Notes under the pieces: model-generated
What the model saw: the letters and a program-made list of their open reading frames with translations, nothing else
Database searches by the model: none
What the model was told of the DNA's origin: nothing
Part shown: piece after piece, positions 45,333 through 64,000 of the stretch
Layout of the letters: each line of letters starts with the position of its first letter
Position numbering within the stretch: position 1 is the stretch's first letter
Assembly (NCBI GenBank): GCA_963711565.1
Contig: CAVQEQ010000004.1
Coordinates: forward strand, 1,280,001-1,344,000
Length of the DNA stretch: 64,000 nucleotides
Reading direction: 5' to 3'
Origin: an uncultured delta proteobacterium
Lineage (GTDB): Bacteria > Desulfobacterota > Binatia > Binatales > Binataceae
Program-made: the position numbers and the translations under genes

Positions 45333-46295
45333 CTACTGGCTGCACGTCGTAATCAAATCGGCGAACATCTCCGAATTGTTGCGATTGTTGAACCGGAACG
45401 AAAACTCGTTCAGGTAGAAGGGCAGATATTTCGCGCTGACGTTGTGATACGAACCCATCACGCCGCGCTTGAGCAGCGACCAGAACGATTCAATCGAATT
45501 GGTGTGAACATCGCCGCGAACGTACTCGCCAGCCGAGTGCCGAACCGAATCATGCGGCAGGTCTTTGTGGACGTAGTTGTAATCTTTGTTTTCGTCGGTC
45601 ACGACCAGTCGAACGTTTTTCCGGTCCACGACTTTGCGCACGAAGCCCGCGAGGGTGGGCGCATCCTGACTGCCAATCACACGCGCCACGACGTTGCCTT
45701 TGCGCTCGATAGCGCCGATGACGCCGATCTTTCCGTAGCGATGCCCGCCGATGCCCAGCTCGCGCTGGCGTGCGGATTTCTGCCACGCATGGCGATTGCG
45801 ATCTTTCCCGCCGACGTAAGTTTCGTCGGCCTCGACAACGCCGCTCAGAGGAGCGTACATGTCGCCAGCCATCGCAGCGCGCCAGCGCATGCAGATATAC
45901 CAAGAGGTGTGATAGTCGTGCGTGGATCGTTCGCCAAAAATCACGCGATGAATCTGTAGAGCGCTGATTCCTTTCTTTGCAGTCAGCATCAGATAGCCGA
46001 CTTTGAACCAGAGGTTCAGCGCGATCTTTGTATCCTCGAAAATGGTTTTGGTTGTGACGCTGAAGCGGTAGCCGTTGCGCTTGTGGCAGACCATCACAAC
46101 GCCAGTCTCTTTATCGACTGTCTCAGCGCCGCTCTTGCAGACCCAATGCCACGGACGCGCCGCGAGCTTGTAGACTTTCTCGCTTGCCTTGCAGCGCGGG
46201 CAGCGCACACCGTCGCGCCAGCGCATCTTCGCTAGGAAGGCGCGGCACTGTTCATCGGTTCCAAATTCGCGGTCGAATTCGCTAAGTGTCTGCAT
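45333..46295 (-). CDS. IS1595-family DDE transposase
   Basis: Zn ribbon CPRC...C, KKGISALQ HTH, VEADETYVGG, VTDE, HTNSIESFW and YLNEFSFRFNNR. Confidence 0.95.
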   Translation of the reverse strand: MQTLSEFDREFGTDEQCRAFLAKMRWRDGVRCPRCKASEKVYKLAARPWHWVCKSGAETVDKETGVVMVCHKRNGYRFSVTTKTIFEDTKIALNLWFKVGYLMLTAKKGISALQIHRVIFGERSTHDYHTSWYICMRWRAAMAGDMYAPLSGVVEADETYVGGKDRNRHAWQKSARQRELGIGGHRYGKIGVIGAIERKGNVVARVIGSQDAPTLAGFVRKVVDRKNVRLVVTDENKDYNYVHKDLPHDSVRHSAGEYVRGDVHTNSIESFWSLLKRGVMGSYHNVSAKYLPFYLNEFSFRFNNRNNSEMFADLITTCSQ

Positions 46296-55563: not shown

Positions 55564-56782
55564 TCAAATGTGCAGTTCCTCCCAGACTTGCTCGTTGCGA
55601 GCGAAGCGGTCGCGCGATAGTGCCGAGGCGTCGAAGGCGCTGTATTTGCCGTTCGCGATCAGATCGGCTAGGGCCTGGCCGGCGCCGTAGGACTGCATCA
55701 CGCCGCGGCCGCTGAATGAGTGCCCTTCGTACACGTGGGGCGCGGCGCGGCCGACGATTGCGCTGCGGTCGGGGCTGACTTCGTACAAGCCGGCCCATCC
55801 GGTGATGTGGCGCAGGCGTTCCATAGAGGTCATGCGCGCGAACATCCGCGGCCAGATCTCGTTCAGGAAGAACGGCTCGCCGTCGTAGTTGAAATGATAA
55901 CCCGGTGGCTCGTCGGGCGGCGAGTATCCGGCGAGGATGTGTGCGCCCTCGTGGTGGAAGTACACGCCCGAGGTGTCGACGATCATGCCGTAGTTCGCGA
56001 GGTTGGTGACGCGATTATCGACGATACAGACCTGGCGGCGAATCGGCTGCGTCCAGTTGCGGAGGTTGAGCAGCTTCATCGCGGCCGGCGACCATGCTCC
56101 GCCGGCGACTGACGATCGAGTCGGCGACAAGCTCGAACACGCGGCCGGTCTCGGCTTCGCCGGAGCCGTCTTGGGTCATCATGCGGACGAGGCCTTCGTC
56201 AGTGTGAGGCTCGTCGGACTGCCAGCATTGGAGGCGCACTTCCGATGCGCCGGCGTCGAGCGCGACGACGTAGGTGCGATCGAGAAACTGCGCGCCGAGT
56301 TTCAGCGCGCGGGCGCGATAATGCTCCTTGAGCAGGTTCGGGTTGATGAGGCCGTCGGCGGGCGAGAACGTGGCGCCGGCGATGCCGTCGAGCTTGTCGA
56401 TCTCGGGCACACGGCGATTGACCTCGGCGGGGGTGAGCGCCTCGATCGGATGGCCGAGCTCGCGCTGGAGCGGGATATGCTCGACGGCTTGCGCGAACGT
56501 GGCGTCGTCGTACAGCCAGAGGTAGCCTTGCTGGCGGAAGCCGACCTCGTCGCGCACGCGCTGGCAGTATTCGATCGACGCGCGGCACAGCGCGATATTG
56601 ACGCGCTGCCACCATGTGGCGCGCATTCCGCCCGCGTTCTTCTCGCTGGAGCTGAGGCGTCCGCTGAGATCGATGTCGACGGCGAGCGGTTTGAGACCGC
56701 GCTCAGCTAGGCCCATCGCGACCGAACTGCCGACGATGCCCGCACCGATCACGATCACATCGAATCGCTCACCAGCAATCAC
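55564..56782 (-). pseudogene. FAD-dependent oxidoreductase (DAO / sarcosine oxidase beta family), frameshift near 56110
   Basis: VIGAGIVG, SSEKNAGGMR and GYLWL in ORF 56015-56782; GAWS, WAGLYEVSPD and FSGRGVMQ in ORF 55564-56130. Confidence 0.82.
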
Positions 56783-56829: not shown

Positions 56830-56887
56830 GTGAAACCCACCGTGGGTTTCACACTTCCTTGGGCAGGGGTGACCCCTGCACCCAGTA
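56830..56887 (+). repeat. two-hairpin repeat family B, copy 2
   Basis: GTGAAACCC-ACCGT-GGGTTTCAC...GCAGGGG-TGA-CCCCTGC-ACCC. Confidence 0.88.
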
Positions 56888-56986: not shown

Positions 56987-57271
56987 CTAGAACTGTTCCG
57001 GCCACTTTCTGGCCGCGTGGAAGACGCGCAGAATTTCGACGGTCTCGCCGCGCACGCGGTATGGAACGATGTACGCTGTGCCGCTCACGACTAGCTCGCG
57101 AGTGCCGGGAACTCGTCCGATACGGCCCGAGGCTGGATGGGTGGCGAGCCGATCGACGGCGATCGCGATACGTCGCACTGTTCGAGCGGCGGCATTCGGG
57201 TCGTCGCCTGCGATGTACTCGGCTTCGTGGTCGAGATTGGTTAGCGCGGCCCTAAGCCATCTTACGTGCAC
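56987..57271 (-). CDS. RelE/ParE-family toxin
   Basis: AEYIAGDDPNAA, HPASGRIGRVPGTRELV, YIVPYRV and ILRVFHAAR. Confidence 0.92.
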   Translation of the reverse strand: MHVRWLRAALTNLDHEAEYIAGDDPNAAARTVRRIAIAVDRLATHPASGRIGRVPGTRELVVSGTAYIVPYRVRGETVEILRVFHAARKWPEQF

Positions 57272-57503
57272 GGCGCCGCCACTTTCCGATCACGGCCTGG
57301 ACTTCTTTTTCACTCGCGAAGTCACCGGCCTCAGCTTCCGTGATTGCGGCTTTGATCTCTGTGATTTGCCATTCGTTCAAATCGACGTAGGCGCGGATTG
57401 CTTCGGCGGCGACGTAGGACTTGGTGCGTTCCATCGCCTTGGCCAGTTTATCGAGGCGGCTTTTCGTTTTGCGATCCACACGGATCGTCATGATTTCGGA
57501 CAT
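57252..57503 (-). CDS. CopG/RHH antitoxin
   Basis: MTIRVD...RLDKLAKAMERTKSYVAAEAI ribbon-helix-helix; overlaps the toxin start. Confidence 0.9.
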   Translation of the reverse strand: MSEIMTIRVDRKTKSRLDKLAKAMERTKSYVAAEAIRAYVDLNEWQITEIKAAITEAEAGDFASEKEVQAVIGKWRRRARKMA

Positions 57504-57550: not shown

Positions 57551-57590
57551 AACCTAACCCTAGCCCCTTCCCTCGAGGGAAGGGGCCCGG
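57551..57590 (+). repeat. REP-like palindromic element family A, copy 2 (variant)
   Basis: AACCTAACCCTAG plus perfect palindrome CCCCTTCCCTCGAGGGAAGGGG (57564-57585). Confidence 0.88.
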
Positions 57591-57644: not shown

Positions 57645-58415
57645 ATGTGTACGCTGGCGATTTATTTTCGCGCTACGCGCGACGGTCCGGTGGTGATTGC
57701 GGCTAATCGCGATGAGTTCCTGGAGCGGGCGGCAGCGGACCCTATTACCCTACTCGAGCGGCCGCATATCGTTGGCGGCAAGGACCTCAGGGCGGGCGGG
57801 ACCTGGCTTGGAATCAGCGAGCACGGGATCGTCGCGGGGCTGCTGAATCGGCGCGCTGAGAACGGCGGCAATCCCGATGCGCGATCGCGGGGGCTTCTGT
57901 GCCTCGATGCTTTGCGATGCCGCACGGCGCGCGAGGCGGCGGAATTTGCGGCGCGCGAGCGCGGGTCGGATTACAATCCGTTCAATTTGTTGATGGTGTC
58001 GCGGACTGAAGCCTTCGTCGCTTACAATCGCGGCGCTGCGATCGAAGTCGTCGAACTCAAGCCGGGGCTGCATCTGCTGTCCAATCTCGACGTGGATGAC
58101 TTCGAGTGTCCGAAGATTAGCGCGTCGTATGGAAAGTTTGCGGAGCTTGGGAACCGCGCGGATTTCCAACGCGACCCGATCGGACAGCGCGCCGCGCTGG
58201 GGGCGTTGCTGGCCGATCACAATACGCAGCTCGATTCGCGATCGGGACGGCCTAATGCGTTGTGTCTGCATCTCGAAAATTATGGGACGCGATCGTCGAG
58301 CTTGATCTTTATGCGCGATACTCATGAGATCGCACATTACTTTGCGCCGGGGCCGCCGTGCCGTACCGCGTATGCGTCGGCGATTGTGCCGCGTACGCAG
58401 GAACCTAACCCCTAA
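57645..58415 (+). CDS. NRDE / TANGO2 family protein
   Basis: MC start, AANRDEF, GGKDLRAGGTWLG, SRGLL, YNPFNL and YGTRSS. Confidence 0.93.
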   Translation: MCTLAIYFRATRDGPVVIAANRDEFLERAAADPITLLERPHIVGGKDLRAGGTWLGISEHGIVAGLLNRRAENGGNPDARSRGLLCLDALRCRTAREAAEFAARERGSDYNPFNLLMVSRTEAFVAYNRGAAIEVVELKPGLHLLSNLDVDDFECPKISASYGKFAELGNRADFQRDPIGQRAALGALLADHNTQLDSRSGRPNALCLHLENYGTRSSSLIFMRDTHEIAHYFAPGPPCRTAYASAIVPRTQEPNP

Positions 58416-58441
58416 CCCCTTCCCGCGCGGGAAGGGGGACC
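58402..58441 (+). repeat. REP-like palindromic element family A, copy 3
   Basis: AACCTAACCCCTAACCCCTTCCCGCGCGGGAAGGGG; contains the NRDE stop codon. Confidence 0.9.
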
Positions 58442-59804: not shown

Positions 59805-59868
59805 ATGTGAAACCCTTCCATGGGTTTCACTCTTCCTTCGGCAGGGCTGAGCCCTGCACCCAGTGTTA
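59804..59868 (+). repeat. two-hairpin repeat family B, copy 3
   Basis: GTGAAACCC-TTCCAT-GGGTTTCAC...GCAGGGC-TGA-GCCCTGC-ACCC; fills the whole gap between two convergent genes. Confidence 0.88.
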
Positions 59869-60597: not shown

Positions 60598-60622
60598 GAT
60601 TGGGGCATCTGCGCGCGCCTCG

Positions 60623-60668
60623 GAACCTAACCCCTAACCCCTTCCCGCGCGGGAAGGGGAACCGGATT
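60623..60668 (+). repeat. REP-like palindromic element family A, copy 4
   Basis: GAACCTAACCCCTAACCCCTTCCCGCGCGGGAAGGGGAACCGGATT; near-exact reverse complement of copy 1. Confidence 0.9.
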
Positions 60669-61943
60669 TTAGGAAAGCGAGGCGTGGATTGCTTTGACCA
60701 GGGCCAGGTTGTCGGAATGGCCGGTCTTCGCCGCGGTTACGTGCGCGTGCAGCGGGCGGCCTAGCAGGTAGAGGTCGCCGATCAGGTCGAGGACCTTGTG
60801 GCGCGCGAATTCGTCGGGGAACCGGAGCGTCGTGTTCACGACCTTGTCGTCGTCGACCAAAATCGCATTGTCGATGCGGGCGCCGCTGCCGAGGCCCAAC
60901 TGCGCCAGCTTGCGAAACTCCCAGACGAAGCCAAACGTGCGCGCCGGTGCAATTTCGCGCGTATAGGCTTCGGGCGAAGTCAGTTCGAAGTGCAACTGCT
61001 GAATTCCGATCGGTTTCGGGTAGTCGAGCGTGTAGTCGATGATCAGGTGGTCGGCAGGCTCGACCTTGATAAACTCGAGGCCCGCGCCTTCCTCGCCGAC
61101 GATGATCTTGCGCTTGATTCGGATCGGCTCGACCGTCGCGTCCTGCTCGGTGAGTCCCGCCTCGCCAAGCTGCTTGCAGAACTCGAGCGCAGAGCCGTCG
61201 AGTGCGGGGACTTCGTCGTCAGTCTTGATGAGGAGGTTGGTGATTCCAAACGCGTGGAGCGCAGACAGCAGGTGCTCCACCGTGCGGACCGATCGGCCGC
61301 CGCTGGCGAGAGTGGTGTTGTAGCCGGTGTCGGTGACGTTGTCGAAGCGGACGGGGATGGCGGTTTCGTCGGCGAGCGAGGTGAATACGATTCCGAATCC
61401 CGCCGGTGCGGGATGAAGTATGACCCCCGTCTTGAGTCCGGTGTGCAGCCCTTGCCCGCCCATCACGATCGAGCGCGCGACAGTTCTCTGAGGCGTCGCG
61501 CCGGCGCGGATCGCCTTGCGGCCCGCGGCGCGGCCCTCGGCGCTTATGCCGCGCGGGTTGGATGGATCGGGGCCGGCGGAATCACCCTCGAGCGCACGCG
61601 CGATCGACGCGAGCAATCCGCTGACTGAGAACGGCTTCTGGATAAAATCGGCGGCGCCGAGCTTGGTCGCGGCGACCGCGCTCTGGATGTTGGCATGACC
61701 GGAGATCATGATCACCGGCACGCGCGGCTGCTCGGATTTGATCCGGCGCAAAAGCTCGATGCCGTCCATTTCAGGCATCCAGACGTCGAGCAACACGATG
61801 GCCGGGCTCTCGCTCGCGATGATGTCCATCACGCCGGGCGCGTTGCCGGTATCGACGACCCGAAAGCCTTCGTCACCTAAAATTCCACGCAACGACGACC
61901 GAATCCGCTCCTCGTCATCCACCACCAACACGGTCTCATTCAC
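60669..61943 (-). CDS. lpxC: response-regulator receiver domain fused to UDP-3-O-acyl-GlcNAc deacetylase LpxC
   Basis: REC: VVDDE, LLDVWMP, ISGH, QKPF. LpxC: QRT...GQGLHTG, TVEHLLSAL, EVPALDGSA, IAPARTFGF, HKVLDLIGDL, GH. Single frame from GTG 61943. Confidence 0.93.
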   Translation of the reverse strand: MNETVLVVDDEERIRSSLRGILGDEGFRVVDTGNAPGVMDIIASESPAIVLLDVWMPEMDGIELLRRIKSEQPRVPVIMISGHANIQSAVAATKLGAADFIQKPFSVSGLLASIARALEGDSAGPDPSNPRGISAEGRAAGRKAIRAGATPQRTVARSIVMGGQGLHTGLKTGVILHPAPAGFGIVFTSLADETAIPVRFDNVTDTGYNTTLASGGRSVRTVEHLLSALHAFGITNLLIKTDDEVPALDGSALEFCKQLGEAGLTEQDATVEPIRIKRKIIVGEEGAGLEFIKVEPADHLIIDYTLDYPKPIGIQQLHFELTSPEAYTREIAPARTFGFVWEFRKLAQLGLGSGARIDNAILVDDDKVVNTTLRFPDEFARHKVLDLIGDLYLLGRPLHAHVTAAKTGHSDNLALVKAIHASLS

Positions 61944-61995
61944 GTCAGATTCTCTCCGGGAAGCGCGCTTCGTCGAGGCGCGGTTGAGGGTCGCA

Positions 61996-64000
61996 TCAGC
62001 CGGTTGCCTTTGCGAATTGCTGCATTTTAACAGGAAATTCGAGCACAAATCTACTTCCGCGAGGGCGGTTGTCGGTCACGCGGACGAAGCCGTGATGGTC
62101 GGTGACGACGGCGGACACGATCGCGAGGCCGAGTCCGGTGCCGCCCTTTTTGCCCGAATAGTACGGCTCGAAAATGCGGGTGCGCAGGCGCGGATCGATG
62201 CCGGGGCCGTTGTCCGCCACTTCGAGGGTGACGAGCGAATTGTCGGAAAGCCGGTGACTGCGCACTTCGATCCGCGGGCCGGCGCCGTTGTGACTGATCG
62301 CGGTCACGGCGGCGACGGCATTGTCGAGCAGGTTGACCAGCGCGCGCTTCATCGCGTCGCGATCGATCGGGATGAGCGGAATCGCGGGGTCGAGCGCGAG
62401 CGTAAACTCGACGTTGGGATTCGCCTCGCGGAAATTCGCGACGGTCTCGCTCGCGAGCGCGTTGATGTCGCCGGGGACCGGATTCAGATGCGGCATCCGC
62501 GCGAACGCCGAGAATTCATTGACGAGCCGCTTCAGATCCTCGACTTCGCCGATGATCGTCTTGGTGCATTCCTCGACCAGCGTCGATTCGATACCGGGGC
62601 GCGCGCCGAGCTGGCGCCGCAGCCGCTCTGCGGAAAGCTGGATCGGCGTCAGCGGATTTTTGATCTCGTGCGCGATTCGGCGCGCGACCTCGCGCCACGC
62701 CTCCATCCGCTCCACCTTCGCAATCTGGCTGACGTCCTCGAAGAACAACACCGTGCCGGCCGGCTCGTTGGGAGCGTCACCAAGCGGACTCGCGGTCATC
62801 ATCAGCTCGGTCTCGCTGCCCGCAATTTCCAGCTTGATCGTCGAGCGCGCCTCGCGCGGACGGGTGGCGAAAGCGAATACGTCGTCGAGCACGCGCGCGA
62901 GCGCGGGCGGAAAGGCGCCCTGGTAGTTGCGGCCGATGACGGCATCGGCGCTGAGATCAAGCAACCGCTCGGCGCATGGATTGATCGTGGTGACGACGCC
63001 GTCGTGGTCCAGCCCGACGACGCCGGCCGACACGTTGCGCAGCAGCGTCTCCGTGTATTGGCGGCGGCGCTCGAGCTCAGCGGCGGACGCGCGCAGGTCG
63101 GCGGTCATTTGGTTGAAGGAATCGACCAGCTGGCCGATCTCGTCGTCGCCCACCGCCGGGATACGGAAATTGAGATCGCCGCCGGCGATAGCCTGGGTGC
63201 CGCGCGCGAGCAGCTTGATCGGGCCGGTGATTCCGCGCGAGAGAAATATTCCGAACCAGCTCGCCAGCGTTACGACCACCAGCCCGATCAGCACCAGCGT
63301 CAGCAGGTAGCTGTTCATGATGGGCTGGCGAAGAATTCGGAGCTGGAAGTAGTCCTCGGATCCGCGCGAGATGTTGGTCGCGCGCGTCGCGAGGCTTTGC
63401 GGCAAATAGTAGTCGACCAGCACCGCGCCGAGCACGTTGTCGGTTTCGCTCGAGACGTAAATCGGCGCGGAGCCGCGCACCACGTCGGCGTTGCCGAGGC
63501 GGTCGGTGCGCGTGAGCGCCTGGCCTTTCAGCGTTTGCGAGATGATCGGCGAATCGGGCGACGCGCCGATGCCGGTGGGCGTCTTCGGACTGATGTCGAT
63601 GAGCAACAGTTTGCGATCGGCGGAGAACACCTCGATGGTGCCGAGGTTGTATTCCTGCTGGCGCTTGGCGATGAAGGTCTTCAGAGCGTCGCGCTTTTGC
63701 GGCGCGAGCAGGCCTTCCGCCGAGATCTGCTCGGCAAGCACGCGAGCGAAATGCGACGCGTTGTTGGCCGAGTTCAGGTAGTAGGTCTTCGCAATTTCGA
63801 GCGAGTCGTTGAGAATCTGCTCGTACTCGGGATTGAACCAGCTATTGATATTAGCGTGCAGGAAGACGCCCGACACGTAAAGCAGAAACGCGCTCGGAAT
63901 CAGCGCCACGGCGATGAATCCGGTCACCAGCCGGACCTGAAATTTCGATCCGATGAGGCCCCGGCGGCGCTCGAAGATGACCTTGGCGAGATTGCGTCCG
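61996..64000 (-). CDS. NtrY-like sensor histidine kinase (HAMP-PAS-HisKA-HATPase), 5' end outside the window
   Basis: DEIGQLVDSFNQM (HAMP), AWREVARRIAHEIKNPLTPIQLSAERL, NLLDNA, DNGPGI and GTGLGLAIV; frame stays open to 64000. Confidence 0.93.
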   Translation of the reverse strand, partial: GRNLAKVIFERRRGLIGSKFQVRLVTGFIAVALIPSAFLLYVSGVFLHANINSWFNPEYEQILNDSLEIAKTYYLNSANNASHFARVLAEQISAEGLLAPQKRDALKTFIAKRQQEYNLGTIEVFSADRKLLLIDISPKTPTGIGASPDSPIISQTLKGQALTRTDRLGNADVVRGSAPIYVSSETDNVLGAVLVDYYLPQSLATRATNISRGSEDYFQLRILRQPIMNSYLLTLVLIGLVVVTLASWFGIFLSRGITGPIKLLARGTQAIAGGDLNFRIPAVGDDEIGQLVDSFNQMTADLRASAAELERRRQYTETLLRNVSAGVVGLDHDGVVTTINPCAERLLDLSADAVIGRNYQGAFPPALARVLDDVFAFATRPREARSTIKLEIAGSETELMMTASPLGDAPNEPAGTVLFFEDVSQIAKVERMEAWREVARRIAHEIKNPLTPIQLSAERLRRQLGARPGIESTLVEECTKTIIGEVEDLKRLVNEFSAFARMPHLNPVPGDINALASETVANFREANPNVEFTLALDPAIPLIPIDRDAMKRALVNLLDNAVAAVTAISHNGAGPRIEVRSHRLSDNSLVTLEVADNGPGIDPRLRTRIFEPYYSGKKGGTGLGLAIVSAVVTDHHGFVRVTDNRPRGSRFVLEFPVKMQQFAKATG

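Follow-up and report, generated by a model that had tools for sequence, protein, structure and literature searches.

Control of LpxC and the closest described systems

LpxC is the enzyme that commits the cell to lipid A synthesis; how lipid A flux is controlled outside enterobacteria is still debated, as is the signal to which the sensor kinase NtrY responds. Here we describe a gene in which an NtrX-type receiver (REC) domain is joined to LpxC beside an NtrY-type kinase gene. It lies in a stretch of 64,000 nucleotides (hereafter the window; positions 1,280,001 to 1,344,000 of contig CAVQEQ010000004.1, GenBank assembly GCA_963711565.1) from the genome, 95% complete, of an uncultured soil bacterium of the Binataceae (Binatia, Desulfobacterota). 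The closest described systems, given here from passages of the papers cited, connect NtrY/NtrX-type pairs with lpxC. In Desulfovibrio, the regulator DVU2934 (NtrX; cognate kinase DVU2931) has lpxC as its single target (PMC3333781) and carries the GAFTGA motif (PMC4641369), and in a mutant of the orthologous kinase lpxC alone was strongly raised, from a sigma54 promoter (PMC4045070). In R. sphaeroides without NtrYX, the lpxC transcript rose 8.8-fold and lipopolysaccharide doubled, an effect judged to be indirect (PMC7240162). Other described modes of LpxC control, with NtrYX transcription listed among them, are FtsH/LapB/YejM proteolysis in E. coli, MurA in P. aeruginosa and, through membrane localisation, Ght in Neisseria; a bound protein can alter LpxC activity, upwards in the case of MurA and downwards in that of LapB (PMC12444477). 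A preliminary description of the locus had presented FtsH/LapB proteolysis as the best-known control of LpxC; NtrY/NtrX control of lpxC at the transcriptional level was also already known (PMC3333781, PMC4045070, PMC7240162).

The locus resembles the Desulfovibrio pairs DVU2931/DVU2934 and Dde_3000/Dde_3003 in having an NtrY/NtrX-type pair dedicated to lpxC (PMC3333781, PMC4045070, PMC4641369), and in S. fumaroxidans lpxC stands directly upstream of the orthologous operon, as it does in the unfused relatives found here. However, the Desulfovibrio NtrX, compared by its description, is a separate sigma54 activator with REC, AAA and DNA-binding domains and a GAFTGA motif that acts on the lpxC promoter, whereas here the receiver sits inside the enzyme, with no AAA+ domain, no helix-turn-helix (HTH) and no sigma54-like site. 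The alphaproteobacterial NtrY/NtrX share a related receiver and a link to lpxC, but differ in their broad transcriptional regulon, an effect on lpxC judged to be indirect and absence of a fusion (PMC7240162). Response regulators of the CheB/PdeR type are likewise receiver–enzyme fusions in which phosphorylation is expected to gate activity (PMC12471899); the examples described are signalling enzymes, whereas the output here is a biosynthetic enzyme, responsible for the committed step of a core pathway. As with FtsH/LapB/YejM, MurA and Ght, lipid A flux would be set at LpxC after translation, partly by a bound protein that changes activity, but none of these, as described, is a covalently attached phospho-receiver. 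The passages searched of the 2025 LpxC review (PMC12444477) mention no fusion and no phosphorylation control, those of bioRxiv 10.1101/2021.11.05.467447 and PMC12471899 do not mention a REC-LpxC architecture, and no description of a REC-LpxC or NtrX-LpxC fusion was found in the literature, mostly open-access, although regulator censuses or supplements could list it. With the receiver fused to LpxC behind an NtrY-type kinase, the signal that is relayed transcriptionally in relatives likely acts directly on the enzyme.

A receiver and a deacetylase in one reading frame

The fusion gene (60669..61943, minus strand) encodes 424 residues from a GTG at 61943 to a stop codon ending at 60669, and is separated from the stop of the kinase gene by a 52-bp spacer (61944..61995, minus strand) containing a ribosome-binding-like GGAGAG 8 nt upstream of the GTG. 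Pfam places Response_reg at residues 5-114 (E 2.4e-30) and LpxC at residues 152-420 (E 1.4e-84), covering profile positions 1-267 of 268, and the protein scores 247.8 bits on the TIGR00325 lpxC model (curated cut-off 187.25). The receiver (residues 1-120; 61584..61943, minus strand), whose best NCBIfam regulator match is NtrX, carries the acidic pair D9-D10, the predicted phospho-acceptor D53 in LLDVWMP (61785..61787, minus strand), S81 in ISGH and K103 in QKPF. The deacetylase domain (60672..61499, minus strand) is complete by Pfam, TIGR00325 and modelled fold, lacks a C-terminal tail, and has TVEH, HKVLD and GH motifs that align with P. aeruginosa LpxC; we take TVEH, HKxLD and GH to be the zinc ligands and the catalytic Glu/His pair of LpxC. 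The flexible linker (residues 121-148; 61500..61583, minus strand) is predicted to be disordered at residues 121-144, with a predicted local distance difference test score (pLDDT) below 50. The single continuous REC-LpxC frame, its named motifs and its distance of 52 bp from an NtrY-like kinase are thus as the preliminary description had them, as is the presence of a linker, which measures about 28-34 residues instead of the roughly 35 given there.

Searched as a whole, the genome carrying the window (G000) holds the fusion as its sole LpxC match, and LpxA, LpxB and LpxK were also found. As the only lpxC copy in a genome with these three, the fusion likely has UDP-3-O-acyl-GlcNAc deacetylase activity. 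In this single-lpxC genome lpxA occurs twice above the curated cut-off (G000:C3:760383-761144 and G000:C4:1186772-1187524).

On the NtrX model NF051870 the fusion reaches 123 bits against 600, with the match confined to residues 4-121; given this shortfall and the absence of AAA+ and HTH, it is NtrX-derived and not an NtrX. Its receiver is 54% identical to that of the NtrX of an unfused relative, and with a profile of 12 unfused NtrX receivers it ranks first of 44 REC matches in G000 (152.7 vs 109.8 bits). The separate NtrX has been lost: none was found in G000, in which the best matches to the full NtrX of an unfused relative are paralogues at 44-45% identity, while the same query gave matches of 61-69% in three unfused genomes and of 47% in the fusion-bearing genome G071. 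The protein is an LpxC plus an NtrX-derived regulator. By its Pfam domains it has a receiver and an enzyme on one chain, which is the enzymatic-output layout of CheB, and it would work as a CheB-type enzymatic response regulator if phosphorylation gates the enzyme.

Distribution and constraint

Thirty-seven of the 41 class genomes carry a full-length fusion (35 of 39 on leaving out the unpublished G018 and G023, on which no claim rests); three others have partial matches spanning the junction, and one, 87% complete, has no match. Contigs from three other studies span the linker without a gap (X5, 60788-61927; X6, 61371-61743; X8, 61312-61658), whereas X7, the fourth run compared, had no listed piece across it, and hundreds of protein clusters combine both domains. 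An assembly artefact or a private deletion joining ntrX and lpxC is refuted by these bridging contigs, genomes and clusters; nothing was found in its favour, and we give it practically no credence. The preliminary description had asked for coverage across the linker (61500-61600) and for a second lpxC or an ntrX; the bridging contigs answer the former, and the sole lpxC, with no separate NtrX found in G000, the latter. Four RNA runs gave just short scattered contigs, none of them crossing the linker.

Relatives at 85-93% identity are named Candidatus Binatus, and on these names the class is taken to be Binatia. LpxC was found in 119 of 121 class genomes, at a single locus each (in one of them in two pieces); in 115 it lies in an open frame of at least 411 codons, and in the other four, G018 among these, it is cut or frameshifted. 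A phylum sample of 201 genomes contains the fusion in 49, of which 42 lie outside Binatia, spread over 14 families; 40 of these 42 were retrieved, and REC and LpxC share one frame in all 40. Named carriers include Nitrospina and other Nitrospinota, Entotheonellia and one Spirochaetota record, names that rest on 30 proteins looked up, many of them nameless. Databases label such fusion proteins as LpxC or as NtrX.

Both the phosphorylation site and the enzyme are conserved. A set of 92 non-redundant fusions retains D53 in 90 members, K103 in 91, D10 in 91 and Ser or Thr at position 81 in 90, and the LpxC residues E223, H224, H382, K383, D386, D390 and H409 are kept in all 92. Against 42 close relatives (42 pairs), the ratio of nonsynonymous to synonymous substitution rates (dN/dS) is 0.047 for REC, 0.088 for LpxC and 0.21 for the linker.

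The NtrY-type kinase

The membrane sensor histidine kinase next door (61996..64000, minus strand) has 742 residues, with the gene start 224 bp past the window end, and four predicted membrane stretches; with HAMP, PAS, HisKA and HATPase_c (Pfam) it has the membrane sensor-HAMP-PAS-HisKA-HATPase layout of NtrY kinases. His519 of its HEIKN H-box (62668..62670, minus strand) is the predicted phospho-acceptor, and the kinase is the sole open reading frame of G000 with the H-box HEIKNPLxPIxLS. The NtrY_N match of the portion inside the window is weak (19.1 vs a 23.2-bit cut-off), and no NCBIfam kinase model reaches its cut-off for the full kinase or for the kinase of an unfused operon; orthologues of the kinase stand before the best-NtrX-scoring genes. 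The synteny with ntrY that the preliminary description had proposed to check extends across the class: the kinase gene immediately precedes the fusion in all of 16 class genomes from outside the genus. It does so too at 72 of 77 named loci, and the remaining five end at a contig edge. On the strength of adjacency and descent, this kinase likely phosphorylates the receiver of the fusion. In the genomes G041, G083 and G119 the NtrY-like kinase, encoded far from the fusion, has diverged to 28-29% identity (35-46% elsewhere).

Origin of the fusion

Unfused relatives suggest where the fusion came from. Of 16 of their ntrY loci, 15 have lpxC as the gene just before ntrY and 12 have a full ntrX just behind it, counts that are not an unbiased rate, as the loci were mostly picked for an lpxC already seen near ntrY. 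With our own pattern for the sigma54 consensus, a sigma54-like site was found within 300 bp before 10 of 17 unfused lpxC genes, while the opposite strand had none in 17. Such a site precedes 1 of 56 fused genes and none of 17 Binatia ntrY genes. In 24 genomes in which fusion and kinase are apart, ntrX follows ntrY at none of the 24 loci, five of which have less than 1.5 kb downstream and one of which is too short to judge. Most unfused relatives had seemed to carry two lpxC copies, but four of these genomes proved to hold a single one, and the second match is probably the receiver.

The fusion takes three forms, namely REC-AAA+-HTH-LpxC of 650-740 residues, REC-HTH-LpxC of about 500 and REC-LpxC of 410-485. 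Linkers in the family measure 20-63, 91-110 or 254-344 residues, and the longer members carry a decayed AAA+ domain and HTH at the linker position. The sigma54-activating part has decayed: unfused NtrX proteins have GAFTGA in 10 of 12 cases and the Walker B DE in 12 of 12, whereas long or HTH-bearing fusions have either motif in 0 of 26. That the AAA+ part went because sigma54 had been lost is rejected, since G000 retains rpoN.

On an LpxC tree of 133 rows one branch (support 0.935) parts fused from unfused sequences, with P0173, P0187 and P0219 inside the fused side; in a 62-sequence subset without these three the split has a Shimodaira–Hasegawa-like approximate likelihood ratio test (SH-aLRT) value of 99. 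The three are apparently stand-alone LpxCs nested among fused ones, and are either fissions or truncated gene calls. The short forms require at least four changes on the tree, and a single loss of the AAA+ part, with one short-form clade, is rejected (approximately unbiased test, p 7.5e-6). Because its AAA+ domain is NtrX-like and repeated regain is unlikely, we take the long form to be ancestral, AAA+ and HTH then having been lost several times, on a tree whose root is not fixed; the unfused order lpxC-ntrY-ntrX is the likely starting point of the series. In the history that we propose, an NtrX activating lpxC from a sigma54 promoter would have fused to LpxC, its ATPase would have decayed, and AAA+ and HTH would then have been deleted several times. 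The output was thus probably not swapped in one step, fusion coming first and loss of the transcriptional parts later. The preliminary description had the receiver swap its output for LpxC; the linkage of an NtrX-type REC and an NtrY-type kinase to LpxC is well supported, but the one-step swap is probably wrong, as some members are full NtrX-LpxC fusions whose AAA+ domain has decayed, with short forms interspersed.

A candidate docking surface

The AlphaFold2 single-chain model of the fusion has a mean pLDDT of 89, a predicted template modelling score (pTM) of 0.87 and a disordered linker, and its LpxC matches solved LpxC with a root-mean-square deviation of 1.5-1.8 Å over 264-273 residues. 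The LpxC domain by itself covers 0.60-0.62 of the model; since the pTM exceeds this share, the model appears to place REC against LpxC with confidence. Among the matches listed, the closest solved receivers by sequence are those of Brucella NtrX (4d6x, 5m7n), and there is no solved chain with both domains.

Fused LpxCs carry a new conserved surface. When 92 fused LpxCs were set against 82 unfused ones, alternating positions in strands of domain I, both polar and variable in unfused LpxC, were seen to be fixed in the fusions (S158, V160, K171, G173, I175, L238 and K240; strands at 61224..61472, minus strand), with G173 in 91, K240 in 90, V160 in 77 and I175 in 73 of the 92. Twelve comparable positions of domain II are unchanged (entropy 3.00 vs 3.10), and the overall mean entropy differs between the sets (1.65 vs 2.01) by a gap smaller than the drop at the patch sites. 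The polar pattern of the positions suggests that the patch faces outward, and from the model and this pattern we infer that REC likely docks on the domain I sheet there. A two-chain complex prediction of REC (1-122) and LpxC (148-424) scored 0.03 against a mark of 0.32 with no controls folded, and was not counted either way. Covariation between the domains across 517 proteins, with 389 columns and an effective depth of about 95, placed 14 inter-domain pairs among the top 40, and was treated as noise because this share is about that expected by chance.

Proposed mechanism and its alternatives

The mechanism to which we give slightly better than an even chance is that NtrY sets the phosphorylation of REC, and that REC, likely docked on LpxC, adjusts the activity of the enzyme. 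The adjacent NtrY-type kinase would phosphorylate and dephosphorylate Asp53, the receiver would pack against the outer sheet of domain I of LpxC, and deacetylase activity, and hence lipid A flux, would follow the phosphorylation state of the receiver. The direction of the effect is the least certain part: by analogy with the ancestral sigma54 activator and with the kinase-mutant result, we lean modestly towards phosphorylation raising LpxC output, so that NtrY as a phosphatase might hold LpxC down while the envelope is intact. If this mechanism is true, direct two-component phosphorylation joins the known modes of LpxC control, an allosteric surface is indicated on an antibiotic target, and a regulator has clearly shifted from transcriptional to post-translational control with intermediate stages alive in genomes. 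Since one kinase has one target, and that target is an assayable enzyme, both the control of lipid A flux and the signal read by NtrY become testable with two purified proteins.

A wider picture, which we hold tentatively and with somewhat more doubt than belief, is that in Binatia, Nitrospinota and several Desulfobacterota families NtrY may be an envelope sensor whose whole output runs through a phospho-switch built into LpxC. Such a two-protein lipid A feedback loop would replace sigma54 transcription and FtsH-type proteolysis, and would act at an allosteric site in the sheet of domain I. Its source would be a transcription factor that became joined to the very enzyme whose gene it controlled and repeatedly shed its transcriptional parts.

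Several observations weigh against an activity switch of this kind. Two related members of one branch, P0142 and P0150, have Asn or Ser in place of the phospho-Asp, with intact LpxC motifs, and the AAA+ part is an example of a fused piece persisting in a decayed state; both points would suit a receiver that is a passenger or folding partner from an old fusion, its phosphorylation having no effect. We regard this as very improbable, since the AAA+ part decayed and was repeatedly deleted, yet the phospho-Asp is kept in 515 of 517 distinct fusion proteins, so that the phosphorylation site outlasted the transcriptional part; moreover, every fusion-bearing genome listed from the phylum sample has an intact NtrY-like kinase. 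P0150 also lacks the conserved Lys of the receiver. The long forms retain Walker A (22/26) and often an HTH, by which they may work differently, and the model of a long form, from a 25-sequence alignment, has a pTM of 0.44 and no sign of fixed domain packing.

Genome arrangement supplies two further points of this kind. Outside Binatia the kinase adjoins the fusion in just 6 of 40 loci, some of them cut short, and besides the fusion G071 (L134, L192) and G227 (L168, L190) hold an unfused lpxC directly upstream of ntrY; neither has ntrX behind ntrY, and the unfused lpxC of G071 retains its sigma54-like site. The separation of kinase and fusion in most lineages outside Binatia and the unfused lpxC kept in front of ntrY in these two genomes are what one would expect if control ran in reverse or sideways, with the LpxC domain, through substrate or occupancy, modulating the receiver, which would serve NtrY or other regulators as a sink for phosphate or a partner in feedback, and LpxC itself being constitutive. 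This seems to us improbable, because no other NtrX-type receiver was found in G000 to take the signal and, from the Desulfovibrio accounts available, the only target of the ancestral system there is lpxC.

The patch is ambiguous as well. It lies away from the active-site motifs, so that its coupling to catalysis is not obvious, and its partner could instead be the kinase, a second subunit or some other protein. Phosphorylation might control the amount or place of LpxC and not its catalytic rate, with REC gating proteolysis or NtrY tethering or sequestering the enzyme at the inner membrane, an unlikely but by no means negligible explanation. All conservation data fit it as well, LpxC proteolysis in E. 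coli and Ght-dependent localisation in Neisseria are known from the passages of the review consulted (PMC12444477), and fused LpxCs stop right after the last helix with no common C-terminal tail, so that a handle at the N terminus could take the place of the degron of E. coli. It does, however, need extra partners, and no conserved third gene stands beside the fusion among 34 neighbours scanned; furthermore, the fixed domain I patch together with a pTM of 0.87 points to an intramolecular contact, as tuning of activity by a docked REC would have it.

Neighbouring features

A scan for promoters and terminators near the operon gave signals at chance level. In all four scanned loci of family f19 (L142, L151, L152 and L158) the gene next after the fusion is a small HTH_17 gene. 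Short palindromic repeats of two families were seen by eye between genes of the window, one family at 58401-58440, 60622-60662 and 57552-57590 and the other at 56830-56885 and 59808-59860; one copy overlaps the region just past the stop codon of the fusion. A FAD-dependent oxidase-like gene (55564-56782, minus strand) seems, again by eye, to be split over two overlapping frames, by a frameshift or a sequencing error. From translations read by eye, we take 56987-57500 (minus strand) to be a RelE/ParE-like toxin-antitoxin pair, and 45333-46295 (minus strand) presumably encodes an IS1595-like transposase.

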